From Myxococcota bacterium (GTDB lineage Bacteria > Myxococcota_A > Bradymonadia > UBA4248 > JAVFAO01), in NCBI GenBank assembly GCA_034002465.1, contig JAVFAO010000001.1, forward strand, positions 1,086 to 65,085: a DNA stretch of 64,000 bases, given 5' to 3'. This document shows positions 5,503-45,366 of this stretch, in pieces. Every line of letters starts with the position of its first letter. Within the stretch, counting starts at the first letter, position 1. The position numbers and the translations under genes were made by a program. Under the pieces are notes generated by a model that was not told the origin of the DNA, searched no databases, and saw only the letters and a program-made list of their open reading frames with translations.

Positions 5503-8500
5503 TCATTCGGGCATGGGGAGCTCAGTGAGCACGGGTTCTTCGAACGCTTCTTCCGTTTCTTCGAAGAAAGCACAACTGGGTGCTGCGTTGCTGTCCAAGC
5601 GCTGCCCGCGCTCATCGTAGAGCTCGGGTCGGTAGGGCGGCTCGAATTCGGCGGGACGGTAGAACTGCAGGGGCTCGCTCTGCAGCGCTTCGAGGGTGCT
5701 TGGCGAGGGGCAACAATACTGGAACGGCGCAGCCCGGCCCTGCTTCTCATACTTGCGCTGCAGCTTGGCGAGGCGCTCTGGGTCACACTTGCGGCGGTAC
5801 ATCTCTCGAATGTACCAAGACATCAGCTTGTCGAGGCGAGGGCTCAGCTCCCCTCTGAGGCGATGTCCTTCTCCGTTTCGTGGGTTCGGGATGATGGCGA
5901 CCAGGAAGGCCACCTCTCGCAGGCTCAAGTCTGCGGGTTGCTTGCCGAAGTAGTAGCGGGCAGCTTCGCGGATGCCGTAGATTTCGGGTCCGAACTCGAT
6001 GACGTTGAAGTAAATTTCGAGAATACGCTTTTTGGGGACCTTGACGACGCTCTCCATCAACCAGGTCAAGAAGAACTCTTGGAGCTTGCGGGCGATGGTT
6101 TTTTGCCGTCCCAGGAAGACATTCTTGACGAGTTGCATGCTGATGGTCGAGGCGCCTCGCTTGAACTCTCCCTTGTCGACGTTACTGGCGAGGGCTTCTT
6201 TGAGCTGGAAGGTGCTGAAGCCTTGGTGAGAGAAGAAGCTGCCGTCCTCGGTGGTGGTGATCATTTGTACCATCCAAGGGCTTAGGTCGGAATACAGCGT
6301 CCAATGCTCGTAGTGTTCGCGGATTTGGGCATCGTCGTGGCTTGGCACAAAGCTGACGCCGTCGTCGGAGGGGTGGCTCGAGGGGGGGATTACGATGCGG
6401 TGCTCGTGCAATGCCTTCGGATCGCGGACTCGCATGCTCATCCCGGTGTTCAGGGCGCTCACGTCGCAGTCGGCGGGCCAGTCCTCGACGTTGAAGTCTT
6501 GGAGCTGAACCTGAGTGTCGAGCTGCATGTCGGAGAGCGCGTTGAGCGCTCCTGCGGCGGTCAGCTCAAAACCCCATTCGCCGCCGAGGCGCATACCCGT
6601 GAGCGCGGGTCGCATGGCATAGGGGAGCGCTTCGAAGAGGCGCTGCGCAGGCTGTGGTGGGATGGAAAGGGATAAGTTGAAAGCGCTTTCGTCGCTGGTC
6701 TTCAGGCCAAAGGAGGGGTCGAGCTGTGCGACGATGGGCTGGATATCGAACGCCATTTGCAGCTCCGCTTCGTCGAGTCCAAGCTTGAAGCGCTTGAGCT
6801 GCAGGCTTTCTCGTTTGTGGTCATAGGTGCTTTCGAAATCGAGGTCGAGGTCGAGAGCGTCGATGGGCATGCTGCTCAGGCTAGGTGCGAGGATCTCGAG
6901 CTGGTTGAGTGCGAGTCGTCCGCCGACGCGGTAGCGCTGCTTCTCGAACTCCAAGCGGAACTTCAGCTTGGAGTCGATGGACGCGTCATCGAGCTTGACT
7001 GAGGAGAGCAGTAGAGCGAGCGCCAAGTCGGCGTAGGAGCTGCTTTGGTCTGCGTGGGAGAGCGCCTGAAGGTTGGCCTCGAGGTGGCGGTAGATGGGCC
7101 TCAGCAGCAGCTCTTCGAGCTCGACGACGATGTCGATGCGGTTGTAGAGCATCGAGTAGGTGGCGCTGGTGTAGAAGCGGCCCCCGGCACCTCCGTTGAC
7201 GTCGAAGGATAGTTCACCCTCGACGCGCTTCCGGATGCCGCGGTAGCCGAAGCCGAAGTCGAGCTTGTCGAGTCGCAGCAGGCCGACGCCATTGGGGCGG
7301 CGGTCGTCGATGAGCAGGTCGGCGTCGGTCAGGTAGAGGCGTTGGGTGACGAAGTAGTCTCGCACCCCCTTGGGCTTCACCTTTTTGGGTGGTAAGCCTG
7401 CTCCTGCGCGGGCTCCACTCTCGAGTTTGTTCCCGACCCGTGAGGCCAGGGCTTGGAACGGCGTCTTCTTGCCGCTGAGCTTATCAATGATGTCGGCGAT
7501 GGCCAACTCGCCGTCATCCTGGATGACGAGCTTGGCGCGCAGCCCGTAGAGCTCGGTTTCCTTGACGTAGACGCCGCCCTTTTTCTTAGGGGGGATGGCG
7601 GTGAGCAGGGCGCGTCCACGGTCGAGGGTGAGGACGGCGTCATCGAAGCCGTGCTCACCTGCGATCCAGAGATCCTCGACGAGCACTGTGGTCGGCAGTT
7701 CGAGCTGCACCACCCCAACCCGCACGGCGCGCCCCAAGGCCTGCTCGGCAAAGGGCAGCACCAGCCCTCCATCGAAGCTGAGTCGCAGGGTCCCGTCGCT
7801 CTTGCTCTTGATGCCCCCGGTGACGCTGAGGGCTTGGCTAAACTGTTGACCACTCACGACATAGGTCGCGACAGCGTGGGCATCGAATTCGACCCGACTT
7901 TGTAGGTCGGGCTGGTGTAGCTGCAGGCGGATCTGTTTCAGGGATTCGAAGCGATGCTGTGTGTTTGCTGCGGCGTTGGCGTCGAAGTCAGGGCTCTGGA
8001 GGCTAATGCTGGCATTTCGAAGCTCGACGGGGGGCAGCGGTTTGAAATAGCGGGCATAGGGCGAGGGCTTCTTAGGTTTCCCGCTGGGCGTTTTCTTCTC
8101 GAAGATCTTCTCGAATTTCTCTTGCAAGTCTGCGTAATTGGTGCTTCCGTCAGGGTTCTGCCGTAGCTCTATTTGCAGCCCATCCACCAGGATCGAACTG
8201 AGCTGAAAATCCATCCCAAAGAGTGGGCTGTGGCTCAGGTCGACGCGCAGGGTGTCGCAGCGGGCGAAGACCGTGTCTCCTTGCTTGTCGTAGAGCACCA
8301 CATCATGCAGGCTCAACCCAGAGATGCCGTGCAACTCGAGGGAGCCGAAGTCCATGCGGCGCCCGAGCTCTTTTTCGATTCGGGGCAATTCGTTGCGCAG
8401 CAGGTGTGCCCCGATGAAAGGGGCTGAGAGGTAGGCAAAAAAGAGCAGCGAGACCAGCAGTAGGGCGCTGATGCCGAGCACCTTCTTGAGTCGCCCCCTG

Positions 8501-9207
8501 CGCCGCGGCTTGGGTTGCGCCTTGGCTTTGGGAGGTGCTGGCAGGAAGACGGGAGAGTCCGGCAGTTTGTTGTCGATTGGGCTCTTCTCCTGTTCCCCCA
8601 AGTTTTGGTCGATTGGGCGCTTGGCCTGTTCCCCCAAGTTTTGGTCGATTGGGCTCTTCTCCTGTTCCCCCAAGTTTTGGTCGATTGGGCGCTTGGCCTG
8701 TTCCCCCAAGGTGGTGGCGGGGGTGACTGGGCTGCTTGGGGCTTCGTCAGCAGGAGAAGCCATCACGTCGGGGGGCTCAGGTGGGGATGCTAGCGCCTGC
8801 TCTGCGGTCTCCTCGAGAGCCGTCTCAACGAAAGGTGCCTCAGCGAAGCCTTCCTGTCGATCGGGCGCTTGGCCTGTTTCCCCAACTTTCTTGTTGAATG
8901 GGCGCTCGGCCTGTTGTCCCAACTTGTTGGGCTTCTCGTCTGCTTTGGGCATCGGGTGCAGCCGTGCACTTCCTGAGGCGCTCGCCAGCTTTTCATCGTC
9001 CGCCTGAAGTGCTGGGTCATCGACGATGGTGTCGAGGTCGTCGTGTTCGCTCCTGTCGGACATGGGCGCTCCGCGCTGTCGAGATGGACGATGGGGTCGG
9101 GGCTGAGCGTTGCGGGCTTTGGCGAGTATCGAGGGCTTGCCGCTGCGACGCTTCCGGATGCCGAGCTGCACCAAGAAGCCGGCGAACCATGATGCTTTGT
9201 GTACCAC
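5503..9207 (-). CDS. AsmA-like periplasmic domain fused to a GT51 peptidoglycan transglycosylase domain; cytoplasmic tail carries in-frame 36-bp repeats
   Basis: 1234 aa. C-terminal GT51 motifs EDGSFFSHQGFS, GASTISMQLVKN, EIYFNVIEFGPEIYGIREAARYYFGK and IIPNP. The central region is AsmA-like (ELPRIEKEL...GISGLSLHDVVLYD). There is one TM segment. The N-terminal tail has (LGEQ[AE]K[RS]PIDQN)n encoded by the repeat family. An alternative start is ATG at 9062. Confidence 0.8.
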   Translation of the reverse strand: MVHKASWFAGFLVQLGIRKRRSGKPSILAKARNAQPRPHRPSRQRGAPMSDRSEHDDLDTIVDDPALQADDEKLASASGSARLHPMPKADEKPNKLGQQAERPFNKKVGETGQAPDRQEGFAEAPFVETALEETAEQALASPPEPPDVMASPADEAPSSPVTPATTLGEQAKRPIDQNLGEQEKSPIDQNLGEQAKRPIDQNLGEQEKSPIDNKLPDSPVFLPAPPKAKAQPKPRRRGRLKKVLGISALLLVSLLFFAYLSAPFIGAHLLRNELPRIEKELGRRMDFGSLELHGISGLSLHDVVLYDKQGDTVFARCDTLRVDLSHSPLFGMDFQLSSILVDGLQIELRQNPDGSTNYADLQEKFEKIFEKKTPSGKPKKPSPYARYFKPLPPVELRNASISLQSPDFDANAAANTQHRFESLKQIRLQLHQPDLQSRVEFDAHAVATYVVSGQQFSQALSVTGGIKSKSDGTLRLSFDGGLVLPFAEQALGRAVRVGVVQLELPTTVLVEDLWIAGEHGFDDAVLTLDRGRALLTAIPPKKKGGVYVKETELYGLRAKLVIQDDGELAIADIIDKLSGKKTPFQALASRVGNKLESGARAGAGLPPKKVKPKGVRDYFVTQRLYLTDADLLIDDRRPNGVGLLRLDKLDFGFGYRGIRKRVEGELSFDVNGGAGGRFYTSATYSMLYNRIDIVVELEELLLRPIYRHLEANLQALSHADQSSSYADLALALLLSSVKLDDASIDSKLKFRLEFEKQRYRVGGRLALNQLEILAPSLSSMPIDALDLDLDFESTYDHKRESLQLKRFKLGLDEAELQMAFDIQPIVAQLDPSFGLKTSDESAFNLSLSIPPQPAQRLFEALPYAMRPALTGMRLGGEWGFELTAAGALNALSDMQLDTQVQLQDFNVEDWPADCDVSALNTGMSMRVRDPKALHEHRIVIPPSSHPSDDGVSFVPSHDDAQIREHYEHWTLYSDLSPWMVQMITTTEDGSFFSHQGFSTFQLKEALASNVDKGEFKRGASTISMQLVKNVFLGRQKTIARKLQEFFLTWLMESVVKVPKKRILEIYFNVIEFGPEIYGIREAARYYFGKQPADLSLREVAFLVAIIPNPRNGEGHRLRGELSPRLDKLMSWYIREMYRRKCDPERLAKLQRKYEKQGRAAPFQYCCPSPSTLEALQSEPLQFYRPAEFEPPYRPELYDERGQRLDSNAAPSCAFFEETEEAFEEPVLTELPMPE
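8566..8712 (-). repeat. 36-bp tandem repeat array, 4 units (family 1), inside the transglycosylase CDS
   Basis: Units TTGTCGATTGGGC[GT]CTT[GC][GT]CCTGTTCCCCCAAGTTT, period 36. The units alternate between two variants (ggcgcttggcc and ggctcttctcc). Confidence 0.9.
8854..8927 (-). repeat. Two degenerate family-1 units
   Basis: ctgtcgatcgggcgcttggcctgtttccccaac and ttgttgaatgggcgctcggcctgttgtcccaac; same orientation as the 8566 array. Confidence 0.7.
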
Positions 9208-9488: not shown

Positions 9489-9562
9489 CATGGGGGAACA
9501 GGCCGAGCGCCCAATCGACAGGAACTCGGGGGACCAGGACAAGTGCCCAATCGACAAAGAAG
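9489..9562 (+). repeat. Family-1 repeat, 2 units, opposite orientation
   Basis: tgggggaacaggccgagcgcccaatcgacaggaac followed by tcgggggaccaggacaagtgcccaatcgacaaagaa. It lies in the divergent intergenic region between the transglycosylase and FGE genes. Confidence 0.85.
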
Positions 9563-10673: not shown

Positions 10674-10700
10674 CGAGGCACAGCGTCCAAGCGCGGCTTC

Positions 10701-10805
10701 TTGTCGATTGGGCGCTTGGCCTGTTCCCCAGCTTCCTGTCGATTGGGCGCTTGGCCTGTTCCCCAGCTTCTTGTCGATTGGGCGCTTGGCCTGTTCCCCA
10801 GCTTC
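10701..10805 (-). repeat. Family-1 repeat array, 3 units (period 35)
   Basis: Three copies of ttgtcgattgggcgcttggcctgttccccagcttc, intergenic. Confidence 0.9.
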
Positions 10806-10957
10806 TTGTGCTCATCGTCCTCGTTGCTGGTGTCGAGCCGAGGAACGTGAGATGCTGAGGTCGGCTCGCCAGGGGCCGCGAGCACCTTCGAAGGCTCTCT
10901 TGGTTGAAGCTTGGTGTGCAGCTCAGCGCGTTCAACGAGAGCGTTCGCCCATCGATG

Positions 10958-11117: not shown

Positions 11118-11154
11118 CTGGGGGGAACAGGCCAAGCGCCCCATCGACAAGAAC
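11118..11154 (+). repeat. Family-1 repeat, single unit
   Basis: ctggggggaacaggccaagcgccccatcgacaagaac, 15 bp upstream of the rhomboid start. Confidence 0.85.
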
Positions 11155-11168
11155 TCATCGACGAAGGC

Positions 11169-13801: not shown

Positions 13802-14749
13802 ATGTTTGCTTTGCTCTGCTCGCTGAGCTCCACAACAACTTGGGGGAGCAGGCCAAGTGCCCAATCGACAAGAACTTGGGGGAGCAGGCCAAGGGCCCAA
13901 TCGACAAGAAATTGGGGGAGCAGGCCAAGTGCCCAATCGACAAGAAATTGGGGGAGCAGGCCAAGTGCCCAATCGACAAGAAGTCGAAGGCTGCCACTGC
14001 GACTGCTGAGCGCCGTCTCAGCCGTCGTGTTGTGCGCGTTGCTCGGGTCCAACGCCTGGTGCGAAGAGCTGCCTGCATCGGAGCAGCCTCCGCTACCCGT
14101 CTCAGAAGCCTTCGAGGAGCGCCTGGCACTGGGCTTCGTCGTCGGCCTCAACCGCTCCATCCTCACTGCGCCCGAGGACGCTGTGGGTGAAGCGCAGTTC
14201 ATGAGCGGCACCGCGTTCAATGGCTTTGGCGTCTCTTTTGGGCCCAGCGCGCGCTTCGGCATCCTCCCTTTCCTGGCCTTGCGCCTGGAGCTGCTCTTCT
14301 CGCTCGATCGCGCGACGGGCTACGAGAAGCTGGGTGAACAATCCCGCGAGCTCGAGCTCTCGACTTGGCGTCTACGCGTGCCCGTGCAGATCCTTGGCGG
14401 CTATGACTTCGGCTTTCTCCGACTCGACCTGGGGCTTGGCCCCGAGTTGGCGCTACCGCTCACCGTCGACGCCACACTCGAGGAGAAGAACATCCCCATC
14501 GAGGCGAGTTTTCCGCTGAGCGTGAGCGCTGGCGCTAGTTTTGGTTTGCGAATGAGCGCTGGCGTTGCCGTCGAGCTGGGAGAAGGGCTTTTTCTGCCAA
14601 GCAATGTTCATCTAAGCTGGTTTCCGGGAGTGCCCGATACTAGCCGAGAGCGCTTCGAGGGCTTCCAGTCTATGACTCAGCCTGGAAAGCTGCGGGTCGA
14701 GTACCAGTGGTGTGTTCTCTGGGATATCGGAATCAGCTACGAGCTGTGA
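13802..14749 (+). CDS. Putative outer-membrane beta-barrel-like secreted protein (start uncertain)
   Basis: ORF ends ..WDIGISYEL with alternating beta-strand-like segments. The signal-like segment LPLRLLSAVSAVVLCALLGSNAWC lies after the repeat array and has no in-frame ATG, so the true start is probably non-ATG near 13985. Confidence 0.5.
   Translation: MFALLCSLSSTTTWGSRPSAQSTRTWGSRPRAQSTRNWGSRPSAQSTRNWGSRPSAQSTRSRRLPLRLLSAVSAVVLCALLGSNAWCEELPASEQPPLPVSEAFEERLALGFVVGLNRSILTAPEDAVGEAQFMSGTAFNGFGVSFGPSARFGILPFLALRLELLFSLDRATGYEKLGEQSRELELSTWRLRVPVQILGGYDFGFLRLDLGLGPELALPLTVDATLEEKNIPIEASFPLSVSAGASFGLRMSAGVAVELGEGLFLPSNVHLSWFPGVPDTSRERFEGFQSMTQPGKLRVEYQWCVLWDIGISYEL
13840..13983 (+). repeat. 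Family-1 repeat array, 4 units
   Basis: ttgggggagcaggccaag[tg]gcccaatcgacaagaa[ac], period 36. Overlaps the 5' part of the longest ORF of the next gene. Confidence 0.9.
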
Positions 14750-26144: not shown

Positions 26145-26189
26145 GCGTCACTCGTTGCTGCTCTGGGCCCTTTTGGGGTGATGGATTTC

Positions 26190-26226
26190 GTGTCGATTGG
26201 GCGCTTGTCCTGTTCCCCCAAGTTGT
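26190..26226 (-). repeat. Family-1 repeat, single unit
   Basis: gtgtcgattgggcgcttgtcctgttcccccaagttg. Confidence 0.85.
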
Positions 26227-26302
26227 TGTGTGCCATCCCTGGCACGCATTCTTCGGGCTGCCATCGCAGCGAGTCTCTGCCTCCTGGCTTCGACTTGTCT
26301 TG

Positions 26303-26352: not shown

Positions 26353-26366
26353 ATGTCGAGATGGGG

Positions 26367-28557: not shown

Positions 28558-28984
28558 GAGAAAGCAGGCGGGGCTCGAGGGCGGGCAGTGCTGTGCTTTT
28601 TGCCTCAGACTTGGCCAAAAGCAACGAAGAAAAGGGGCAGGCGCTGCGTCGAGGGACGCGGCGGACCCAGCATAGCGAAAAACACGGTGGAACACCGCAG
28701 AACACTGCAACCCCCCGAATTTAACCGTGGCTGTAGGTGGTTATACTATTGGGATCGTCCAGGCATCCTGGGCTGAGCGTGGTACAGTCCTTGCTCAGAT
28801 GTTGGGATGCGAGGGCCGAGGAGCCCTGGCCAAGACGACCCGCAACCAGTTGTCGCGTTTGAAGGGTTGCGAGTGCAGACGGTCGGGGTTGGCTCGAGTC
28901 ACACCGCCTCAATGAGGCGCAACCGGTCTGCACGAGGCTCGTGGGGTTCGCCCTGAGAACGAGCGCACCGAACAGGGAGGTTCG

Positions 28985-29479: not shown

Positions 29480-29573
29480 CTCGGTCGGATGACAATTTTC
29501 CCAGTGTTCTCCGATGTTTTTCGCCTGAATCAGAGCGCACGCTTGGTCGGCGAGATGGCTGTTTCCCGAGGGC

Positions 29574-31196: not shown

Positions 31197-31360
31197 GGCC
31201 ATGCAAAGAGGCAGCGAAGGTGCATACCCGGTCATGAAGCGGGGGCATAGCTCGAGAGCGGGCGACTGCATTGACGAGGACGGAGCAGCGGGGCATTGAG
31301 GTGATGGGCTCTGAACGCGGACGGTGTGGCTCTTGGTGAGCGGCGTTCGATGGACAAAGC

Positions 31361-34300
31361 ATGCAGGACCTGGTTGCGATACGAGCTTTGCTATTCTTGG
31401 TCCGACGCGAGCTGCTGCGGCGACGGGCGTTGGAGGTGGGCGCGTATAGTTTTCTAGCGCTCGCGGCGAGCCTTACGCTGTGGTGGTTGTCGAGTCCAAG
31501 CGGCTTGGTGTGGGGGCTGCTGGCGTGGGCGAGCCTGCTTGTGGCGGTTTTGGTGCCGAGTTGGCTGTTGTTGTGGCCAGCTTGGTGGCGCACGCGCAGT
31601 GAGCAGGGCACGGCTCGTGAGCTGGAGCGCTTTGAGCCAGCGTTTCGCGATGACTTGTCAACGAGCTTGCAGTTTTCGGCGCTGTTGCAGCAGCAGCCCG
31701 AGTCGGCTCAGGTCCTTGGGGCGAGGGCGGAGCTGGCGCGAGCCCAGATTCGACATAGCGCGCAGCGTGCTCGACGCTATGCAATGCAAGCGTCGACGCT
31801 TTTCGTTCGGCACAAGCTGGTGGGGGTGAGCGCGGCTGGGTTGACGCTGAGCGTTGTGCTGCTATTTGGCTCTGCGCTCTATCCGTCTCGCAGTTCGGAG
31901 CTGCTCTCGCTCTTCCTGGGGAACGCCGAGCGAGCATTACAGATTGTCGGTTTTCACAGCGTGGATGAGCCGCCCACCGAGCGGCCGCTGGTCGGGCAAC
32001 TTCACATCGAGCTGATTCCGCCCGCATACAGTGGTCTGCACAGTCGTCAGTTCTTCAACAGCACGGGTGATTTCGAGCTGCTCAAAGGGACGGAGCTGCG
32101 TTTCGAGGGCAAGCTGCTTGAGGACGCGGACGCGGTGACTTTGGTGTTCGAGGGCAACGACGGGACGCAGCTCGAACAGGCGATGCTGTGCGAGGGAAGC
32201 TCGGTGAGCGGCAGCTTCGTGGCCTTGCACTCGGGGTGGTATCGTTTTCGTTTGCGGTCCTCATCGTCAGGAATACTCGAACACGATCTTCGACGGCGTC
32301 TCGATGTGGTGCCCGATATGGCGCCGAGCGTGGTGATCGATGCAGCAGCGAGCTCGGTGGAGGTGACTGCGGATGAGATGCTTGCTTTTCGCATTCGGGC
32401 TTTCGATGACTATGGCCTGTCTGCCATCGAGCTCGAGCTTGCGATAGAGGGGGCGCAGACGCCTGCCAAGGTGGTGAAGGTGGCCCGTCTGTCGCGTCAG
32501 TCGAATTGGGCTGACGAGGTGCAGCTCGAGCTATCAGAGATGGCGCTGCAGCCCAAGGACGTGTTGGTGGTGCATGCGTTGGCTTGGGACAACGATGAGG
32601 TGTCGTCTCCGAAGTCGTCGCGCAGCGCGCCCGTGTATTTGCGGGTGTCGAGTCCCGAGGATCGGCACGAGGCATTGTTGCGTGCCGAGGAGTCGATGCT
32701 CGACGACTTGTTGTTGCTGCTTGCCGATGAGCTGGAGGCGCCGTTGCAGGCGGACGAGCCGGGTCAGGCGCCGAGCGAGGGGCAGCGTGTGGCGGAGCAG
32801 GAGCTTGGAGAGCGCTTGGCATCGGCCAGTTTCTTGAGTGACCGTCGGGCCGAGGTGCTGCGGGCGATGGCGAGCTTGGGGGAGATGCTCGCTGCGGACG
32901 GTCTGATGCTGCGGCGCGATGTGGAGCTTTTCGAGCATTTGCGGCAGGTGATGAGCCAGATGCAGTCGAAGGCAGGATTGCAGCTGGAGCGATTGGCGCT
33001 TTTGCATGCGGCGGGTCAGCTGCATGAGGAGGAGCTCCGTGTGTATACACGAATGCATCGTCTCCCTCAGATTGAGCAGACCGAGCGGGCGCTCATTTTG
33101 CTCAAGGAGATGGTGCTTAGCCAGTGGATGGATGCTGCGCAGTTGACCGTCAACAGTATTCACGAGCGGATAGAGCGTTTGCGAGCTTTGGCCTTGCAAC
33201 TGGAGACGGTCAATGACCCTCGGCTGCGGGCGGAGATGGAAGCGGAGATGGCGCGCTTGCAGCGAGAGCTTGATGAGCTGCTTGGTCGGCTCGCGCAGCA
33301 GTCCGAGAAGCTGCCGAGCGAGCATGTCAACGCGGAGGCGATGAAGGCTTCGGATGCGCGCAAGCTGGCGTCGCGTGCTGAGGAGATGCGCCAACTCTTG
33401 GATGAGGGGCGGATTGAAGATGTGTTGTCGATGCTCGACGAGCTCGACGCAGAGCTGCAGTCGATGTTGGCGGTCGCGGATCAGTATACCAGCGCAGGCG
33501 GGAGCGCGACGTCTCGGATGGATGAGCAGGCGAGTGCATTCTTGGATAGCGTCAACGATCTGGCCGAGGCGCAGGCTGGTCTGGAGAAGCGTGGCCAGCG
33601 CTTGCGGGATGCGATGCGAGAGCGTATTCGAGCCGAGCACAGTGTTGAGCTGGACGGCTTGTCGCAGCGTCAGTCGCGGCGCTTGGCTGCGTTGGGGCGT
33701 CAGCTTCACGCATTGGATGCTCAAGTGCCTGGAGATATGGCGGTTTCTTCTGCTCGCCGAGTGTTGGAGCAGGCACAGCAGCTCAACGAAGCGGGCGATC
33801 TTGATGGATTGAGGCAGGCCATCGAGCGTTTTCGAGAGCGTCAAAGCGAGGCGCAGGCAGAGGCTTTGGATGCGTATTTCGACGCGGAGCCCGGTTCGCC
33901 AGAGCGGGTGGCGGCGCGTGAGCGAGAGTCGGCTTGGAGGCAGATGGACGAGCTTTCCCAAATGATCGAGGGCGAGCTCGATTCGGCGTCGCGAGCGCTG
34001 CAGGTCGAGCCCAGTCCTGACGATCACGACGAGATGCTCGAGCAGCAGCAGGTGCAGCGGGCTCTGCGTGACTCTGCAGGGGAATTGGGGGAGCAGCTTG
34101 GGCAGATGGCGGACGCGTTTCCGGCGATGGCTGAGCAGTTGCAGCCCCACTTCGAAGAAGCGGTGGGTTTCATGCGCTCAGCGGAGGAGGAGCTTGGGGA
34201 AGCAACGCTCGGGGAGGCGCTGGAGGCGGAGCGGCAAGCGTTGCGTTCGTTGCAGGCGATGAAGCGTCAGCTTCAGCAGAATCTTCAGAAGGAGCGAATG

Positions 34301-34468
34301 GCAGATTCGCGACGCAAGCCCTCGCCGGTGGAGCGTGTTGCGATACCCGAAGCGGATCGGAGTGCTCCTCGCGCGTTTCGTGAGGACATTCTCGAGGCGA
34401 TGAAGCAGCAGGCCATACCTGGATACGAAGATGAAGCCAAGCTCTACTATCAATCCCTCATTGAGTAG
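31361..34468 (+). CDS. DUF4175-like large membrane-anchored coiled-coil protein (paralog of 3062-5254)
   Basis: 1035 aa. Two N-terminal TM helices, IELIPPAYSG, long coiled-coil segments, and the C-terminal motif IPGYEDEAKLYYQSLIE resembling VPPGYRHYVERYFDFI of the first paralog. Confidence 0.65.
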   Translation: MQDLVAIRALLFLVRRELLRRRALEVGAYSFLALAASLTLWWLSSPSGLVWGLLAWASLLVAVLVPSWLLLWPAWWRTRSEQGTARELERFEPAFRDDLSTSLQFSALLQQQPESAQVLGARAELARAQIRHSAQRARRYAMQASTLFVRHKLVGVSAAGLTLSVVLLFGSALYPSRSSELLSLFLGNAERALQIVGFHSVDEPPTERPLVGQLHIELIPPAYSGLHSRQFFNSTGDFELLKGTELRFEGKLLEDADAVTLVFEGNDGTQLEQAMLCEGSSVSGSFVALHSGWYRFRLRSSSSGILEHDLRRRLDVVPDMAPSVVIDAAASSVEVTADEMLAFRIRAFDDYGLSAIELELAIEGAQTPAKVVKVARLSRQSNWADEVQLELSEMALQPKDVLVVHALAWDNDEVSSPKSSRSAPVYLRVSSPEDRHEALLRAEESMLDDLLLLLADELEAPLQADEPGQAPSEGQRVAEQELGERLASASFLSDRRAEVLRAMASLGEMLAADGLMLRRDVELFEHLRQVMSQMQSKAGLQLERLALLHAAGQLHEEELRVYTRMHRLPQIEQTERALILLKEMVLSQWMDAAQLTVNSIHERIERLRALALQLETVNDPRLRAEMEAEMARLQRELDELLGRLAQQSEKLPSEHVNAEAMKASDARKLASRAEEMRQLLDEGRIEDVLSMLDELDAELQSMLAVADQYTSAGGSATSRMDEQASAFLDSVNDLAEAQAGLEKRGQRLRDAMRERIRAEHSVELDGLSQRQSRRLAALGRQLHALDAQVPGDMAVSSARRVLEQAQQLNEAGDLDGLRQAIERFRERQSEAQAEALDAYFDAEPGSPERVAARERESAWRQMDELSQMIEGELDSASRALQVEPSPDDHDEMLEQQQVQRALRDSAGELGEQLGQMADAFPAMAEQLQPHFEEAVGFMRSAEEELGEATLGEALEAERQALRSLQAMKRQLQQNLQKERMADSRRKPSPVERVAIPEADRSAPRAFREDILEAMKQQAIPGYEDEAKLYYQSLIE

Positions 34469-36044
34469 CCTCTCGGTCGGGGTGCTCTTGTGCGCGAGTG
34501 TGCTGTGCGCTGTTGGTAGCGCTCAGTCGGCTGAGGATGCGTTCTTTGTCCGGGCGCAGGACGCATTGGAGTCGCTCGACTTGGCGCAGGTCCGGCAGAT
34601 GCTCGAGGAGGTCGAGGGCGACGATGACTTTCGTGTGGAGCTCTTACGAGGGCGCTTGCGCTTCTATGAGGGGGACTATGCGGAGGCGGTGACGCTGATG
34701 AAGCAGGCCATCGAGCGAGGGGGTGCGGCGGCTCGGGCGTATGAGCCCGAGCTCAGCTTGGTGGAGGCCACCGAGGCGTTGACCCGGGAGCATGTGCGTG
34801 TGCGCAGCAACGATGGTCGTTTCGAACTGAGCTATCCCCCTGGCAAGGATGCGGTCTTGGTCGACTTTACTTTCAGTGCGATGGCTGCGGCGTACGAGGC
34901 CTTCGGCGAGGATTTTGGTGTGCGTCCGAGCGAGCCGATACGCATTGAGGTGTATTCTTCTCCTGATGATCTGGCCAAGGTGTCCAGCTTGACGGAGAGT
35001 GATGTGGCGACCACCTCCACGATCGCGCTCAGTAAGTACAACCGGATCATGCTGACAAGTCCGTTGGCGTTGATGCGTGGCTATGCTTGGCTCGACACGT
35101 TGGTGCATGAGTATTGCCACATGATCATTGCTCAGGCGGGTGGTCCGGGCGTTCCCATTTGGGTACACGAGGGGCTGGCGAAGTTTTCGGAGCGGCGATG
35201 GCGGGGGGGCGATGAGCAGCGCTTGTTGCCGGCGCAGCTTGATTATCTCTTGTATACAAGGGCAAAGCAAGGGCGGTTGGTGAGTTTTGCCCAGATGCAC
35301 CCATCGATCGCCAAATTGCCTGATCAGGAAGACGCCTCAATGGCATACGCCGAGGTCTTTGCTGCGATGGAGTTGGTGTATTCTAAGCATGGAATGATCG
35401 GTTTGCGTGAGATGCTTGGGCTGATCGCCGAAGGGCAGCGTGCCGAGGCAGCATTCGAGACTGTGCTCGCCTCCTCCTTTTCAGACTTCGAGCGTTCTTG
35501 GAAAGCGCACATGCTGCAGCGGGAGCGGCGCTATGAAGGGGAGGAGCCTCCCGATGTGTTCGAGCAGATAGCCTTTCGAAAGGATGCATCGGTGGGAGAG
35601 GACGATGATGTCTCACTGATTGGCGAGGAAGGTGCTCGTCGTCTGGTCTATCTTGGGGATCTATTGCTCTCGAAGCAGCGTCCGAAGGCGGCGGCGGTGG
35701 AGTATCGCAAGGCGGCAGCGCTGATTGGCGGGAGCAATCCGGTGTTGCAGGCACGTTTGGGGCGAGCCTTGCTCGAGCAAGGGGAGTCGGCCCAGGCTGT
35801 GGAGGTGCTGCAGTCGGCACTCATCGAGGGGGAGCACTACATGACGCTCTTTGTGTATCTTGGGCGGGCGCTGAATCGTGAAGGGCGCTATGAGGAGGCG
35901 GAGCGGGCGCTTTGGGAAGCGGCGGCGATCAATCCTTTCGATCCCGCTATTCACGAGGAGTGGGCGCTGAGCTATCGTGCCCGTGGCGATGCGGAAGGGG
36001 AGCGGCGAGCCAAGGAGATGGTCGAGCTCTTGGCTGGTCACTAG
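34431..36044 (+). CDS. Secreted HExxH zinc-peptidase-like (peptidase MA-type) protein with C-terminal TPR repeats
   Basis: Signal peptide SVGVLLCASVLCAVGSA, LVHEYCHMII..VHEGLAKF (HExxH plus a downstream E), and TPR-like C-terminal helices. Overlaps the upstream gene by 38 bp. Confidence 0.6.
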   Translation: MKPSSTINPSLSSLSVGVLLCASVLCAVGSAQSAEDAFFVRAQDALESLDLAQVRQMLEEVEGDDDFRVELLRGRLRFYEGDYAEAVTLMKQAIERGGAAARAYEPELSLVEATEALTREHVRVRSNDGRFELSYPPGKDAVLVDFTFSAMAAAYEAFGEDFGVRPSEPIRIEVYSSPDDLAKVSSLTESDVATTSTIALSKYNRIMLTSPLALMRGYAWLDTLVHEYCHMIIAQAGGPGVPIWVHEGLAKFSERRWRGGDEQRLLPAQLDYLLYTRAKQGRLVSFAQMHPSIAKLPDQEDASMAYAEVFAAMELVYSKHGMIGLREMLGLIAEGQRAEAAFETVLASSFSDFERSWKAHMLQRERRYEGEEPPDVFEQIAFRKDASVGEDDDVSLIGEEGARRLVYLGDLLLSKQRPKAAAVEYRKAAALIGGSNPVLQARLGRALLEQGESAQAVEVLQSALIEGEHYMTLFVYLGRALNREGRYEEAERALWEAAAINPFDPAIHEEWALSYRARGDAEGERRAKEMVELLAGH

Positions 36045-36178
36045 TGAAGGGCGCCCATCCTTGCGCCATTCCGAAGGCGTGCAGCTTTCGAGCGCATGCG
36101 CTTCGACGTCTGCAAACAGAAGCCTGTCTTTCGCTAGCTTCGGTGGTGTCCCGATAACAAGCCGTTTGGGAGAGCGAT

Positions 36179-36436
36179 GTGGATGCGGAGTTGACGCTCG
36201 AGCTGTTTCGACACGCTCTGGTTTTGACCTTGCTTCTGGCCTTACCACCGCTGCTGGCGATTTGGTTGTTGGCGTGGCTCGTTGGGGCGCTGCAGGCGGT
36301 GCTTGGGATTCCCGATGCTTCCTTGGGGATGGTGCCGCGCTTCGTTTTGGCGCTCTTGGCTTGGGCGGCATCGCTGCCCTGGATCATGGCGGAGTTGTCG
36401 GCCTTTTCGCTGCTTCTCTTCGACTATGCGCTGTAA
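36179..36436 (+). CDS. FliQ/SctS-like two-helix membrane mini-protein (orphan)
   Basis: 85 aa. ALPPLLAIWLLAWLVGALQAVLGIPDASLGMVPRFVLALLAWAASLPWIMAEL parallels FliQ (..APLLL..LQAATQI.E.TL.FIPK...PWM..) in length and topology. Codon usage is coding-like. Confidence 0.45.
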   Translation: MDAELTLELFRHALVLTLLLALPPLLAIWLLAWLVGALQAVLGIPDASLGMVPRFVLALLAWAASLPWIMAELSAFSLLLFDYAL

Positions 36437-36439
36437 GCT

Positions 36440-38356
36440 TCAGGGGAGCTCGTCACAGCCTTCGGGGATGGCGAGCTCTCGGCGGAAGCTGTGCTGGTTG
36501 AGGGTGGATTTCTTTTCGATTGGGCGCTTGTCCTGTTCCCCCAGGTTGTTTGCACGCAGCCAGGTCCAGGTTCCGGATTCGGTGCAGGCATCTGCTTCGA
36601 GGCCGTAAGTTTCGACGCTGATACGGCGGCTCGCGACGAGTTGGAGCGCGTCGAGGCCACGGGGGCGAACCTTGAGCTCGACGTGGATGGAGACCTTGGT
36701 GGGGTCGGTGAAGTAGCGATCGCAGGCTTCGAAGTTGTGTTCGAAGATGGGCTGAGGGCCGGTCTCGCTGAGGACGATACGATTCCAGGAGAGGCGGACC
36801 TTGTGCTTCGACTTGCCGGTGGCGAGCAGGTCGGCTTCGAAGTCTTGGCTGAGGGCCCGAATGTCGTTTGCGTTTGGGAATTCGAGCTCCTTGTCGAGCT
36901 TGAAGCTTTGTTCTGCTCCGCTCGAGTCGGTGCGGCTGAGCAGCAGGGGCTTGTGTTCTGCGGTGCTGTAGTACCAGCGGCGGATGACGCGTCGGTCGCG
37001 TTGTTCGCTCTCGAGACGGCCCATGACGTTACAGGGTTTCTCTTTGTATATTGCGTTCTTGGCGTACGCGGGTTGGCGATCGCGCGTCAGGCTCGCCTGG
37101 GTCTCTTCGACCACATAGAGCTCGCCCTTGGGGCTTGGCCAGTGTTGGACTGCAACGCGTTGCTCACTTTGTTCGCGTTGCTCTGGCTTTCCGCTTTGGC
37201 TCCAAAGCTTGGTTTCACTTTGACGTTCGAAGAAGCCGTGCGCGTTGAGCTCGAGCAGGTGCTGACGAGATTCGCCGCTCAGCGCTTGGTCGCCATCGGG
37301 TTCTAGCTGTTTGCCGTAGTCGAGCTGGATGTGGAGTCGTGGAGCGGTGGTCTCGGGGAACAGGCGAAGCTGCCCGGTGCGCAGGTCATCATCGTTGTTT
37401 TCGAATCGAAATCGCGCGATGGGGGCGAGCTCTGGCCAGGGCTCGTCGCTCTGTGGGTCGAGCTTGGTCTTGGGCGTGGGCAGGCCGAGGGGAGCGTCGA
37501 GCAGCTGGCGTTGGGCCAGTTGGGGATTGTTGGAGAGGGCGTTGAGCGGGTCGATGCGCAGGCCTTGCGTCGAGAGGGTGAGCAGCTCGCTGCCTTCGAG
37601 CTCGGGATAGAGGTCCCACTCGATGAACAGGGGCGAGGTGGCGTTGATGGTTTGGACCAGCTTGGGCTCGGCGGCGGGTGGGAGCGGTGAGAAGGGAGGC
37701 AGCTCAACGAAGCATGCTTGGGTTTCAGAGAAAGCGTAGAGGATGGGTTGTGTAGAGAGAACCAGAAGCACTGGAGGATCGCTGGGGAAAAGCCAACTGT
37801 CCCCCTCGGATGGGGCCACGCAGGGGGAGCCCTCTGGCAGCGGTGGCACAGGCATGAAGGGTCTTGACTCTGGCAAGGCGAGCCAACGTTCTTGTCGATT
37901 GGGCGCTTGGCCTGTTCCCCCAAGTTCTTGTTGATTGGGCACTTGGCCTGTTCCCCCAAGTTCTTGTTGATTGGGCACTTGGCCTGTTCCCCCAAGTTCT
38001 TGTTGATTGGGCACTTGGCCTGTTCCCCCAATGACTTCGCCGAGCTCACCGGGCTGCACGAAGCGTTCGGCGAGGGCTTGGTTGCAGGCGGCCCAGGCAG
38101 GGCTGGCGGGTGGATAGATGAGGGTGAACGCAGGGGCTGGTGGTGCTTCGGCGAGGTCTTCGGTGGCTGGCTCAGGAGGTGGAGCTTGGACGGTGTCTGT
38201 GAGGGGCTGCTCGGCAGTGGTATCTGTTTGGGGAGCGTTCTGCTCTGGGGGCGGTGTTGGGGCTTGTTCCTTGGGTGTGCATCCGAGGACGGTGGCAATG
38301 CCAAGGGTGACGGCGAGGCTCACGGCAACGCGGCGGGGGTGAGGGGAGCTAGACAT
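36440..38356 (-). CDS. Hypothetical lipoprotein carrying in-frame family-1 repeat insertions
   Basis: Start MSSSPHPRRVAVSLAVTLGIATVLGC (lipobox). Contains (GTGQVPNQQELG)x4 from the array at 37891-38030 and NLGEQDKRPIEKK from the unit at 36514. The longest ORF extends to 38692. Confidence 0.6.
   Translation of the reverse strand: MSSSPHPRRVAVSLAVTLGIATVLGCTPKEQAPTPPPEQNAPQTDTTAEQPLTDTVQAPPPEPATEDLAEAPPAPAFTLIYPPASPAWAACNQALAERFVQPGELGEVIGGTGQVPNQQELGGTGQVPNQQELGGTGQVPNQQELGGTGQAPNRQERWLALPESRPFMPVPPLPEGSPCVAPSEGDSWLFPSDPPVLLVLSTQPILYAFSETQACFVELPPFSPLPPAAEPKLVQTINATSPLFIEWDLYPELEGSELLTLSTQGLRIDPLNALSNNPQLAQRQLLDAPLGLPTPKTKLDPQSDEPWPELAPIARFRFENNDDDLRTGQLRLFPETTAPRLHIQLDYGKQLEPDGDQALSGESRQHLLELNAHGFFERQSETKLWSQSGKPEQREQSEQRVAVQHWPSPKGELYVVEETQASLTRDRQPAYAKNAIYKEKPCNVMGRLESEQRDRRVIRRWYYSTAEHKPLLLSRTDSSGAEQSFKLDKELEFPNANDIRALSQDFEADLLATGKSKHKVRLSWNRIVLSETGPQPIFEHNFEACDRYFTDPTKVSIHVELKVRPRGLDALQLVASRRISVETYGLEADACTESGTWTWLRANNLGEQDKRPIEKKSTLNQHSFRRELAIPEGCDELP
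36514..36549 (-). repeat. Family-1 repeat, single unit
   Basis: ttttcgattgggcgcttgtcctgttcccccaggttg. Confidence 0.85.
37891..38030 (-). repeat. Family-1 repeat array, 4 units
   Basis: ttgt[ct]gattgggc[ga]cttggcctgttcccccaagttc, period 36; the last unit is truncated. Confidence 0.9.
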
Positions 38357-38752
38357 GGCGTCTTTCCTTGGAGCAAGGGCAGAACGGCGGAGTGTCAATG
38401 GTTTGCTGGCTGGCAGCGAGCGTGCGGCACTTCCAATTCTGAGCGAGCTTTGGGTTGGATGGCATCGCATTGGCGTGCCACGCGACGAACCGCCGATGGG
38501 CGGCGTGCAAATCAAAGTTCTAGCACGGAAAGCCGAGTGGGTGGACCGTGCATGAGCGAATAGGCTTGCAATTCTTGCGAGTGAATGAGCAGAATGGAGC
38601 TGCGACGGGGTTGGAAGCCGGTTGTGGTGTTGTGCGCGTCGACTTGGCGCGTTCGGTACGTTGTCCAACAGAGGCGAAGAAGGGGCCGTCATCGAAGCGC
38701 ATCATCGGCTTCGATTTCTGCTCTGGAAGCGCGAGCAACAAGGAGGGAAGCG

Positions 38753-41382: not shown

Positions 41383-41442
41383 GTGGGGCTCTGCCCCACG
41401 CCCCGCCAAAGGGCTAGCCCTTTGGAATCCCTTCTCTTTTTC
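41383..41442 (+). terminator. Family-2 double-hairpin element; candidate bidirectional terminator between convergent genes
   Basis: GTGGGGCtctGCCCCAC gccccg CCAAAGGGCtaGCCCTTTGG aatcccttctctttttc. Two perfect hairpins followed by a T-rich run. Confidence 0.5.
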
Positions 41443-41496
41443 GTATCGCTCGGCGACTCCTCTTGGGTCCCACGCCTCGACATTAGTGAGACTGCG

Positions 41497-42780: not shown

Positions 42781-42803
42781 GGCTTCCTCAGTGGGACATT
42801 TTT

Positions 42804-42910
42804 TGTTGATTGGGCGCTTGGCCTGTTTCCCCAAGTTTTTGTCGATTGGGCGCTTGGCCTATTCCCCAAGTTTTTGTCGATTGGGCGCTTGGCCTGTGTT
42901 CCCAGCTTCT
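42804..42910 (-). repeat. Family-1 repeat array, 3 units
   Basis: ttgt[tc]gattgggcgcttggcct[ga]tt[tc]ccccaagttt, period 35-36. It overlaps the stop region of the 42859-44898 gene and sits 24 bp upstream of the 41497-42780 gene start. Confidence 0.9.
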
Positions 42911-44898
42911 TTTTCGTCGCGGGCCAAGGTGAGTGCTTCGATTTCGAGGAGTCGCTGTTGGAGCCGCTTCCATGCAAAGAGGAGAGTGTCGATGGGTACC
43001 GGCGCCTCACCCTCTCGATCGATGAACCGGGCGAAATCGATGCTTAGTTCCACCAAGCGACGTTGTTCTTCGAGCAGGGCTTGGAGGGTGGGCGAACGTT
43101 CGGGCTTGAGCGCGCGTGCGAACTCCTCGACTTGGAAGATGATTTGGCCCATTGCGCGCAAGAGGTTGAGGTAGCTGCCGTTTCGGTGCGCGTAGAGATC
43201 CCAGGTTCGCTCCCAGTGTGGGAGCTGAGGCCAGTCCAAGGACGCGCTGGAGAGCTCGGCAAACCAGGCGTGCATGGCAGCGAGTCGCTGGACCTGTCGA
43301 GCGACGTGCAAGCGGCTGAGCTCGAGGATGACGAGGTTGTGTCCTAGGCTTCGTTCTGCGACTGGAATACTCCGCCATCCTTCGATCCATTGGGATTGTT
43401 TCGGGGAGTCTTCGACGATGGGAGAGGGGACGCTGCGGCAGCGGTCGTCACCGCAGGCTTGGGCGATGCTTTGGTGCATGCGTTCGAGGGTGGCATCGAT
43501 TTCGGAGATGGCGAGCAGGACCTGTTCAACCTCAGCGATGCGTGCTGGAGAACGAATGGGGTCGAGGACCTCGCTGACGAAGGGGGTGAGGAGCTTTCCT
43601 CGTTTGCTGAGCCGGAGTGCCTCGGCTTGGAGGCGCTCCTTGCTGGGTGTGATGGCGAAGAACGCGGCGCGCCAGGCGACGCGGTCTTCGAGGACGGGAG
43701 GGGTGTCGTGTCCTTCGGAATCGAGGATCTCGGCGAAGCTTTGCCAGAGCAGGGCGTTGCCTTCATCCCAGTGGTGGAGGATGGCGAATTCGAGACCGAT
43801 CAGTTCGGCGACACGGAGGTCGACGGCGTTTTGGGTGGCGCTGAGTTCAGCGAGTATTTCTCCGGGTGTTTCTTCGTTTTTTCCGAGCGTGACGAGCAGG
43901 GCGCGCATCCCTTGCTGGGCGCGTTGCAAGGCCACTTGCATTTTCAGGCAGTAGTCGAGGCTGCTTGCAGCTCTGCTGACGGTTCGTACGCGCGCGGCGA
44001 TGCATTCTGCTGAGGGCGAGCCCTCTTGGGCAGAGACCAGACGTTCGAGGACTTTGCTCTCGGTGCTGTACTCAGAGACGGCGTCGGAGAGCGCCTCGCT
44101 CTGAGCGAGCCAGGCTTCAATGGCGAGCAGAGGGCCAGTGACGGAGCCTGCAGCATAGCTCCATCGGGCGTCGGTTTCGGTTCTGCTACGCCAGTCGAGC
44201 AAGGCTTCGTGTAAGCGCAGCATCAGCGCGAGTGCCGGCCGATGTCTGGCGAAGCGTGTGACCATTTTGGCATGTAGCCAGTCGCCGTCGAGTCGGCTTG
44301 CGTGCGAGTCGAGCTTTTCGAAGTTCTGGCGTTCGCGTTCGAGGTGACTGAGCAAGGGTTCATCTGCATGTTGCAGCTTGTCGGCGCTGAAGGCTTCGCG
44401 CAGTTTGTCGAGGGAGTCGACGAATGAGCGCGCAGCGAGCTCGAGTCGGCCCAGGGCCCAGAGAACGTTGCGATGCTGCTGCACGAGTTGATGCGCGCCC
44501 AAGGTCCAGGTGTGTGGATGGTGCCACTGCGGATCGACGCTGCATTGTAGAGTTGGTCGTGGTGTGGTGGCGAGAATGAGGGCTGATTCGGCGAGGGTAT
44601 GGTATTCTTCAAAGGCGTCGAGGACGGTTCGCCATTGCTGTCGCGCCTCAGGCTCGAGGCGCGTCTCAAGTGCTTCCGGTATGGCGATACTCTGTTTGAG
44701 TGCTTCGACCCCCGTTCTCCATGCGTGTTCTGGTGTTCCGACTTCATCGTAGCCAACCAGGTGTACGCTGGGGACGCGCAGTTCGGGCATGGGGTGGTCG
44801 ATTCGGTCTGCCGGGGTTTGGCATTGCGAGCAGGCGCCGAGCGACGCGCAGAGCGCGCTCAGGGCGAGTAAGCGCAGGCTTCCTGCAAACGTATGCAT
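42859..44898 (-). CDS. Large hypothetical lipoprotein, preceded by conserved leader element A
   Basis: Start MHTFAGSLRLLALSALCASLGAC (lipobox). Mostly helical, no known motif. The C-terminus is encoded by repeat units (..GNTGQAPNRQKLGE). The longest ORF extends to 45174. Confidence 0.6.
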   Translation of the reverse strand: MHTFAGSLRLLALSALCASLGACSQCQTPADRIDHPMPELRVPSVHLVGYDEVGTPEHAWRTGVEALKQSIAIPEALETRLEPEARQQWRTVLDAFEEYHTLAESALILATTPRPTLQCSVDPQWHHPHTWTLGAHQLVQQHRNVLWALGRLELAARSFVDSLDKLREAFSADKLQHADEPLLSHLERERQNFEKLDSHASRLDGDWLHAKMVTRFARHRPALALMLRLHEALLDWRSRTETDARWSYAAGSVTGPLLAIEAWLAQSEALSDAVSEYSTESKVLERLVSAQEGSPSAECIAARVRTVSRAASSLDYCLKMQVALQRAQQGMRALLVTLGKNEETPGEILAELSATQNAVDLRVAELIGLEFAILHHWDEGNALLWQSFAEILDSEGHDTPPVLEDRVAWRAAFFAITPSKERLQAEALRLSKRGKLLTPFVSEVLDPIRSPARIAEVEQVLLAISEIDATLERMHQSIAQACGDDRCRSVPSPIVEDSPKQSQWIEGWRSIPVAERSLGHNLVILELSRLHVARQVQRLAAMHAWFAELSSASLDWPQLPHWERTWDLYAHRNGSYLNLLRAMGQIIFQVEEFARALKPERSPTLQALLEEQRRLVELSIDFARFIDREGEAPVPIDTLLFAWKRLQQRLLEIEALTLARDEKEAGNTGQAPNRQKLGE

Positions 44899-44981: not shown

Positions 44982-45366
44982 CTTGCAAGATGCCTCTGGT
45001 TGGTCGTTTCGGGGGCCGAGTCCGAACGAGAGCGGAGCGAATTGGGTCGCGATTTCGCTTGCGCTCGCTCGGTCTTCGCGGTGCTTGGGCGGGCATTGGA
45101 TGTGCACCTCCAGATGCCGACTCAGATGCGCGGCGCGTGCTTCCTGTGCTGGCTGGGCGAAGTAGAGGGAACATGTGGAATCGACTCGCTTGAGCTCAGT
45201 GGGTGGTGACCCGGTTGCTTGTGGGAGTGCGAAGCAGAACCAAAAGAAAAAAAGGTGCACTGAAGGGCACTTCACGGCTTGCCGCGGGAGTGACCTAATC
45301 GGTAGTGTATACCCCCCTGCTTGTGCTTTCCACACAGGCATCTTGGAGAACGTCGAGGACACGTCG

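Follow-up and report, generated by a model that had tools for sequence, protein, structure and literature searches.

A 36-bp DNA repeat carried in more than one reading frame by genes of an uncultured Myxococcota lineage

How can one DNA repeat, lying in the same orientation in two genes, be read as one peptide in the first and as a different peptide in the second, and what does this say about the repeat? The question is raised by a 64-kb stretch of Myxococcota DNA, called the window here, which lies within a 77.9-kb contig of a metagenome-assembled genome (MAG; locus tags RBU37_*). In the window, a lipoprotein gene and a transglycosylase gene both carry tandem copies of a 36-bp unit, with the consensus TTGGGGGAACAGGCCAAGCGCCCAATCGACAAGAAC (lipoprotein sense strand). 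A sequence-only reading of the window had proposed that selection acts on the unit as DNA, or simply tolerates it, and does not act on a peptide motif. We followed the unit through the window, through about 80 kb of additional DNA from the same MAG's metagenome (L003-L007) and through protein databases. The results speak for an element at the DNA level and against a conserved peptide motif. The unit is probably a lineage-specific, high-copy dispersed repeat of one uncultured Myxococcota lineage that behaves as selfish or neutral DNA.

The first of the two genes encodes a 638-residue lipoprotein. Translation from ATG 38356 gives MSSSPHPRRVAVSLAVTLGIATVLGC..., which is identical to the NCBI protein MDX9719123.1 (RBU37_00140), and a Pfam scan of this protein returned no family. 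In the longer open reading frame (ORF; 36440-38692, minus strand), a four-unit array (array H) reads ...EVIGGTGQVPNQQELGGTGQVPNQQELGGTGQVPNQQELGGTGQAPNRQERWLAL... and a single unit near the end (unit G) reads ...RANNLGEQDKRPIEKKSTLNQ.... Tandem Repeats Finder (TRF) gave array H a 36-bp period, with 4.1 copies and 97% matches. ORF translation confirms that the four units are read in the GGTGQVPNQQEL-type frame. The sequence-only reading had also placed a fifth unit, in the 3' part of the gene, in another frame (LGEQDKRPIEKK); translation bears this out, as does a 12-residue gap in a homolog.

A HMMER search of 1.84 billion representative proteins gave two distant homologs of the lipoprotein, P0046 and P0047, at about 30% identity. 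Both align on either side of array H with a single clean gap of 44 residues. Where the window protein has ...QPGELGEVIG[array]ERWLAL, the homologs have ...RQGVVGRTAVG-EAWLAL and ...GGVARTDTG-EVWVTI. P0046 also aligns on either side of unit G, with a gap of exactly 12 residues, after which the tail is kept (IPEGCDEL vs IGEACDDL). The alignments show array H and unit G to be insertions into a pre-existing lipoprotein gene. The gene body 3' of array H has a coding-type base composition, with a GC content at third codon positions of 0.65-0.83.

The second gene encodes a DUF748/AsmA-like and transglycosylase protein. Its ORF (5503-9207, minus strand) contains TTLGEQAKRPIDQNLGEQEKSPIDQNLGEQAKRPIDQNLGEQEKSPIDNK, and the coding sequence (CDS) starts at ATG 9063 in both the NCBI and the JGI annotation. 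Here, units in the same orientation are read four times in another frame (LGEQAKRPIDQN/LGEQEKSPIDQN), as proposed, and translation confirms it. The four units make up array A, a 72-bp higher-order repeat in which two unit variants alternate. Directly after array A come SPVFLPAPP and an RRRGRLKK-plus-transmembrane segment, which are kept in frame in the orthologs P0061 and P0062. The N-terminal tail of these orthologs is about 110 residues shorter, with SPxxLPAPP kept, and array A is located in a non-conserved N-terminal cytoplasmic tail. The DNA 5' of the transglycosylase arrays has a coding-type composition (0.69/0.42/0.73). The same gene carries a second, diverged array (array A2) whose units lie 37 nt apart, and the frame therefore switches from the LGEQ frame to the GTGQ frame within one gene.

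Since the units point the same way along the gene in both the lipoprotein and the transglycosylase, the two frames are real, provided that no frameshift places both genes in one peptide frame. Such a frameshift was looked for in the alignments with P0046, P0047, P0061 and P0062 and is excluded, because the homolog gaps are clean and the flanks and the C-terminal tail are kept. The frame of a unit is the phase at its site; units of 35 or 37 nt can shift it within one gene or array.

The unit is abundant. Its 24-nt core, GATTGGGCRCTTGGCCTGTTCCCC, has 24 matches in the window with at most three mismatches and none in 100 dinucleotide-preserving shuffles. A scan of the window allowing up to five mismatches gave 25 unit copies at 10 loci, where chance predicts 0. 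This amounts to about one locus per 6 kb, as singletons or short tandem arrays that are both intergenic and intragenic. A locus holds 1-4 units in the window and up to 9-10 elsewhere; copy numbers of identical units are lower bounds. TRF detected arrays at 8564-8717, 10696-10809 (period 35), 13832-13982, 37883-38031 and 42800-42903. About half of the window loci are intergenic, some of these arrays having a 35-bp period, and the unit is present in both orientations. Units have locus-specific variants, with an identity of 0.92 within arrays and 0.84 between arrays.

All six frames of the consensus are free of stop codons, and 36 bp is a whole number of codons, so a copy or a whole array can be carried in a CDS without truncation. 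The canonical strand is purine-rich (A12 G12 C9 T3). By grand average of hydropathy, the peptides of the three sense frames are hydrophilic (-1.3 to -1.7) and those of the antisense frames neutral to hydrophobic (0.0 to +1.2). In frequent variants of the unit, stops arise in frame b (TGG to TAG/TGA) and also in frame f. The commonest polymorphisms are CpG transitions, at column 18 (C>T, GCGC to GTGC; 13 of 66 units) and at column 27 (G>A, TCGA to TCAA; 11 of 66), as expected for deamination of methylated cytosine. Both alter the amino acid in the two main frames, giving A/V and R/Q in frame c. The Cys predicted from the column-18 change appears in none of the 41 units in frame-a database proteins, which hints weakly at a peptide-level filter.

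The unit is present in at least 40 annotated MAG proteins, among them kinases, HypF and a GDP-mannose enzyme. When the lipoprotein was searched against 5.8 billion proteins, there was one true relative, P0001; the other 12 matches were unrelated proteins of the same MAG that share the repeat only. They include kinases, a corrinoid protein, an O-antigen ligase, a UvrD-type helicase, an AAA ATPase and HypF. A query with all six unit frames returned 35 proteins. Across these searches the unit was essentially confined to this MAG and its metagenome. A metagenome scan for the unit gave one 1.6-kb contig. With locus-specific variants, the unit is found in a second metagenome (L001).

We tabulated the frames in which annotated MAG proteins carry the unit. 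Five of the six (a, b, c, d and e) are annotated as translated. Frame c (sense, GGTGQAPNRQEL) accounts for 20 arrays, 12 of them internal to the protein, and frame a (sense, LGEQAKRPIDKN) for 13 arrays, with three internal. Frame b (sense, WGNRPSAQSTRT) has four arrays, the single internal one lying in a probably spurious ORF. Among the antisense frames, d (VLVDWALGLFPQ) has two arrays, both internal, e (FLSIGRLACSPK) has one, which is not internal, and f (SCRLGAWPVPPS) has none. Many of the N-terminal frame-a cases are probably gene-caller artefacts, because frame a begins each unit with TTG; the database proteins P0014 and P0034 begin exactly at a unit. Several frames are thus in use, but use is not uniform, and 'frame-independent use' as first worded does not hold. 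The predicted peptides are RPIDQNLGEQAK (tryptic) for frame a, GGTGQVPNQQELGGTGQ... for frame c and WGSRPSAQSTR for frame b of array E.

In two conserved enzymes the insertion is clean when compared with solved structures. In P0020, a GDP-mannose pyrophosphorylase homolog, residues 159-211 (frame a, LGEQAKRPIDK) replace a 6-residue loop of structure 2x5s. In P0019, a BcrAD-type ATPase, residues 153-215 read the antisense frame d (LLVDWALGLFPQ) and form an insert whose place in structure 4eht is between residues 155 and 157. Both arrays are sited in loops of globular enzymes. A stretch in P0019 resembling a piece of a second repeat family (module B, below) aligns to native enzyme residues, and the idea that the array carries such a piece was rejected. 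The repeat-bearing Dam methylase P0032 was compared with the Dam-like gene of the window as a possible empty site; the two are not orthologs (E=0.001 over short stretches).

Where do the insertions fall? The sequence-only reading had put them in predicted linker regions, which holds only in part. Array A lies in the N-terminal tail just described. Array H lies between two homolog-conserved segments, outside the Pro/Ala-rich tether, and unit G likewise lies between conserved segments, near the C-terminus of the lipoprotein; other arrays lie in the loops of the two enzymes. An AlphaFold model of the lipoprotein, built from a 3-sequence alignment, was too poor to tell linker from domain (mean pLDDT 40, pTM 0.28), so placement was judged from the homolog alignments instead.

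Intragenic and intergenic copies may also differ in spacing. Within genes the spacing is 36 bp in 16 of 17 cases, whereas the period is variable in five to six of nine intergenic arrays, a contrast that is only suggestive. Periods of 35 or 37-38 bp occur in arrays C and I of the window and at L004:3233, and no periodic peptide can come from an array with a 35-bp period. Over the window and the additional loci, intragenic copies run about 12 sense to 1 antisense. Intergenic copies, 35-bp periods, both orientations, five frames, the many host proteins and the two enzyme insertions all favour a DNA element over a peptide motif. As to whether selection acts on that element or tolerates it, the data show tolerance only.

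The loci of the window and the neighbouring repeat modules are listed in Table 1. Arrays A, A2 and H and unit G are inside genes, array I spans a gene boundary, and arrays B and E and unit D lie just 5' of starts; array C and unit F are plainly intergenic. The nearest relative of unit G is the intergenic unit F (93% over 46 nt).

Table 1. Host genes, copies of the 36-bp unit and copies of modules B and C. Positions are those of the window unless prefixed by a metagenome contig.
Feature	Position	Strand	Description
Lipoprotein gene	36440..38356	minus	638 aa; signal peptide and lipobox VLGC
Transglycosylase gene	5503..9063	minus	1186-aa DUF748/AsmA-like + transglycosylase protein (Pfam; NCBI and JGI annotation)
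Array A	8564..8717	minus	four units, frame a LGEQAKRPIDQN + LGEQEKSPIDQN; N-terminal cytoplasmic tail of the DUF748/transglycosylase protein
Array A2	8849..8922	minus	two diverged units in the same transglycosylase gene; LGQQAERPFNKK (frame a), then GETGQAPDRQE (frame c)
Array B	9490..9562	plus	two units directly 5' of ATG 9570 of FGE-sulfatase lipoprotein gene
Array C	10696..10809	minus	three units, 35-bp period; intergenic, antisense to both flanking genes
Unit D	11119..11155	plus	singleton just 5' of rhomboid protease start (ATG 11169)
Array E	13832..13982	plus	four units before signal peptide of ORF 13802-14749; frame b WGSRPSAQSTRT
Unit F	26182..26227	minus	intergenic singleton flanked by convergent genes; joined to modules B (26231-26292) and C (26329-26358)
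Unit G	36505..36550	minus	singleton near 3' end of lipoprotein gene; frame a LGEQDKRPIEKK
Array H	37883..38031	minus	four 36-bp units in lipoprotein gene; frame c GGTGQVPNQQEL x3 + GGTGQAPNRQE
Array I	42795..42911	minus	three units, periods 36 and 35, spanning gene boundary
Module B	26231-26292	minus	window copy
Module B	60887-60950	plus	window copy
Module B	L001:177-240		copy elsewhere
Module B	L005:7020-7074		copy elsewhere
Module B	L005:12198-12261		copy elsewhere
Module B	L006:10705-10765		copy elsewhere
Module B	L007:2324-2386		copy elsewhere
Module C	10965-11020	plus	window copy
Module C	41395-41450	minus	window copy
Module C	20975-21004	minus	window copy
Module C	26329-26358	minus	window copy

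At array I, the upstream gene (42859-44898, minus strand) ends ...GNTGQAPNRQKLGE* at a TAG within unit 2, and the next gene starts about 15 nt past the array. The TAG arises because a 35-nt unit shifts the frame and CAG became TAG, and the last ~13 residues of the protein are therefore repeat-derived. Array E is not separated by any canonical start from the hydrophobic core of the signal peptide that follows it, and frame b, the third sense frame, may be translated there. Outside the window, in the stretch L004:3233-3448, a four-unit array with 37-38-bp periods stops only a few bases short of a tRNA-Gln gene (3378-3448, minus strand), at the 3' end of that gene.

The unit frequently has other repeat modules as neighbours. 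Module B is a second repeat family of about 70 nt, GTCGGAGCCAGGAGGCGGAGACTCGCTGCGAAGGCAGCCCGAAGGGTGCGTGCCAGGGATGGCACGCAACAACT, with three hairpins (z -3.0 to -3.5) and no Rfam match, and it often lies directly 5' of 36-bp units or between them. Module C is a third family, an intergenic double hairpin of the form AAAAAGAGAAGGGATTCCAAAGGG-CTAG-CCCTTTGG...GTGGGGC-AGA-GCCCCAC that resembles repetitive extragenic palindromic (REP) sequences. Its copy at 26329 adjoins module B and unit F. At several loci the 36-bp unit is joined to modules B and C as a mosaic. Even single copies of the unit have a 5' flank of about 9 nt, ACAACAACT, that resembles the unit's own 3' end, ACAAGAACT. These A/C-rich 9-mers (ACAACAACT ... 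ACAAGAACT) bracket copies and recur in similar form from locus to locus, which suggests part of the element or a preferred target and not a target-site duplication. No terminal inverted repeats or clear target-site duplications were found around the unit copies.

The surroundings are those of an ordinary chromosomal region. The window contains MoxR/DUF58/VWA genes, the transglycosylase, an FGE-type enzyme, a rhomboid protease, Dam, a cyclophilin, kinases, flotillins, ClpP and trigger factor. Among the ~27 window ORFs scanned with Pfam there was no transposase, and no REP-associated transposase (RAYT, IS200/IS605-like) was seen in the DNA covered. Three other stretches stood out. At 22145-22312, a 15/18-bp tandem repeat (CTGTTGTGGGTACCCCTG) in a Ser/Thr kinase gene (21923-23443, minus strand) encodes a low-complexity tail rich in Gln, Gly, Tyr and Pro; the 36-bp family is not related to it. 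ORF 3062-5272 (minus strand), which encodes a 736-residue protein with no Pfam family, has tandem repeats of 9, 12 and 27 bp at 3358-3750. A very long ORF of 2923 codons occupies 45166-53934 on the plus strand.

How would a selfish or neutral repeat come to look like this? Arrays would grow locally by replication slippage or unequal exchange, aided by the ~9-nt direct repeat (ACAAGAACT / ACAACAACT). Purifying selection would then remove copies with a harmful peptide, while the peptide itself would not be needed. Such a filter would explain the sense bias of intragenic copies, the frame-c excess and the strict 36-bp intragenic period. It would also explain why intragenic copies are placed in tails, loops or domain boundaries. 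The non-uniform frame use, together with the hydropathy contrast between sense and antisense peptides, indicates that selection sees the peptide as a negative filter and requires none. As to the seeding of new loci, the mosaic with the hairpin modules hints at a trans-acting enzyme or at template-switch copy-and-paste.

Several points weigh against reading the unit as a selfish or neutral repeat. All results come from short-read metagenome assemblies of one lineage, and the frame counts rest on automated gene calls and on the sensitivity of phmmer to low-complexity peptides. 'Selfish' is a reading of the pattern. Intergenic copies lean to the sense orientation of their neighbours, about 5 to 2, which is non-significant, and in a small sample they cluster just 5' of start codons (B, D, E and I). 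This orientation and clustering could reflect an RNA-level or regulatory role. The frame-c excess among internal arrays could likewise reflect positive use as a flexible linker.

A bolder version of the selfish-repeat reading is possible, though doubtful. The unit may form, with modules B and C, a mobile element system of Myxococcota that is non-autonomous, active and undescribed. It would be seeded at new sites, essential enzymes included, and then expand in 36-bp steps. Seeding would be carried out by a trans-acting enzyme or by a templated-insertion process.

It is unlikely that the unit is a functional DNA or RNA cis-element with the intragenic copies as spill-over. It could then serve as a site for regulators or nucleoid proteins, or as a tuner of translation in 5' untranslated regions or between cistrons, as proposed for mycobacterial interspersed repetitive units (MIRUs). 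The positions of B, D, E and I, in sense orientation 10-25 nt 5' of starts or across gene boundaries, fit this, as does the slight lean of intergenic copies towards sense. Conservation of the 24-nt core from locus to locus is good, and every unit contains a GGA within a purine-rich stretch as well as short inverted repeats (TTGGG/CCCAA, CTTGG/CCAAG). However, the unit folds no better than shuffled sequence (minimum free energy -6.6 kcal/mol, z -0.4), with only a 5-7 bp imperfect inverted repeat, and whole arrays fold weakly (z -1.0 to -2.3). Rfam gave no family at the gathering threshold in the window, or at E<=1 in repeat-rich stretches, apart from one match to a human long non-coding RNA model (E=0.67) that we dismissed as noise. 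Folding and database searches likewise leave a structured RNA or a CsrA-type sponge, with one GGA per unit, unsupported. Some copies also lie in antisense orientation between two genes of the same direction (C; L006:14434), others past the ends of convergent genes (F; L005:2665) or far into the coding sequence of enzymes. Finally, the unit is confined to one lineage, and its ordinary housekeeping host genes function without it in relatives.

A selected peptide is less probable still. On this account, frame-c (GGTGQAPNRQEL)n is a flexible linker or modification module spread by recombination, and intergenic copies and those in other frames are remnants, decayed or wrongly annotated. Frame c does make up 12 of the 18 internal arrays, its Gly/Gln/Pro/Asn-rich composition resembles that of natural linkers, and the 36-bp period inside genes is strict. 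Against this, intact frame-a arrays are present in the conserved enzyme P0020 and in the window (A, and G as confirmed by the alignment with a homolog), and an antisense array lies inside the conserved enzyme P0019. Intergenic arrays are equally well preserved, some with 35-bp periods. The commonest polymorphisms, at columns 18 and 27, change the frame-c amino acid, and homologs of the host proteins do without any such linker.

Assembly and gene calling were considered as a source of error. An independent Logan assembly (SRR25572339) is identical to the window at 11477 of 11477 bases (26440-37916). By its record coordinates, the contig spans 26267-37916, one end lying in module B and the other in the first unit of array H, which is where high-copy repeats would be expected to break an assembly. 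The NCBI and JGI annotations differ in their starts wherever an array is at the 5' end (9435-9570, 11052-11169 and 36440-38356), which gives 404 vs 367 residues for the FGE enzyme, 316 vs 277 for the rhomboid and 638 vs 443 for the lipoprotein. Array B is inside the NCBI CDS, in frame c, and outside the JGI CDS. That mis-assembly or a library artefact made the arrays, or that a frameshift puts both genes in one peptide frame, is hardly credible: tandem repeats do trouble short-read assemblers, the Logan contig breaks at arrays, many arrays of 3-4 units (108-144 bp) are near read length and gene callers disagree beside them, but the unit occurs with locus-specific variants in independent assemblies (NCBI/JGI, Logan and the second metagenome), both flanks of intragenic arrays align in one frame to homologs or solved structures, the Logan and window bases agree throughout, and the conserved sequence that follows, the tail in the case of unit G and the body in that of array H, is unbroken.

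That repeat DNA can be read inside genes has been known in principle since 2000; the present case is unusually clear, rich and multi-frame. It is a natural example of a stop-free unit, a multiple of three in length, that is read in whichever frame it lands, with selection only filtering the peptide. One DNA family, read in different frames, has given dozens of conserved enzymes 24-96 additional residues, which makes them a data set on insertion tolerance. There are practical consequences as well. The arrays break short-read assemblies, mislead gene callers, which call TTG starts inside arrays, and create spurious 'homology' between unrelated proteins in database searches. If the active mobile system were true, the lineage would be insertion-scanning its own proteome, a source of new linkers, tails and signal-peptide extensions.

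Full-text literature searches with the unit DNA or its peptide strings found no paper. Among known repeat families, in-frame intragenic minisatellites (variable number tandem repeats, VNTRs) of bacterial surface proteins are alike in having units that are multiples of three, so that copy-number change by slippage keeps the frame. Those VNTRs involve one gene and one peptide, whereas here one DNA family is spread over dozens of unrelated genes and intergenic DNA. REP sequences and bacterial interspersed mosaic elements (BIMEs) of enterobacteria and pseudomonads are alike as high-copy short repeats in variable intergenic mosaics, which the unit forms here with modules B and C. REP/BIME elements are imperfect palindromes of about 20-40 bp; unlike them, the unit is not a palindrome, its arrays are head-to-tail and not inverted pairs, and many copies are intragenic. 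REPs are extragenic almost by definition, and mobilisation of REP/BIME needs a dedicated transposase; for the spread of the unit this resemblance is a lead and not a result.

MIRUs insert at start codons and gene boundaries, where their own ORFs merge with flanking genes or couple to them (PMC12548453). The unit shares with them a size of tens of bp, many loci and short tandem arrays. Arrays B, D, E and I, at boundaries or starts, look like MIRUs in placement; two other intergenic arrays are antisense, and many arrays are intragenic. MIRUs are described as intergenic or intercistronic, with a defined -4 nt coupling geometry. The unit differs in being common deep inside coding sequences as well; the sequences are unrelated, and no -4 nt geometry was seen.

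Rickettsia palindromic elements (RPEs; Ogata et al. 2000) are, according to PMC10969869, about 100-150 bp long, palindromic and in single copy per site, with one conserved peptide per family. RPEs too are a lineage-specific repeated DNA family found in frame in many unrelated housekeeping genes and in non-coding copies, with insertions tolerated where the fold accommodates them. The unit differs in its length of 36 bp, in not being significantly palindromic, in forming tandem arrays and in its use of at least three sense frames and one antisense frame. The closest counterparts are RPEs, as selfish DNA read as protein, and MIRUs, as dispersed short arrays at gene boundaries.

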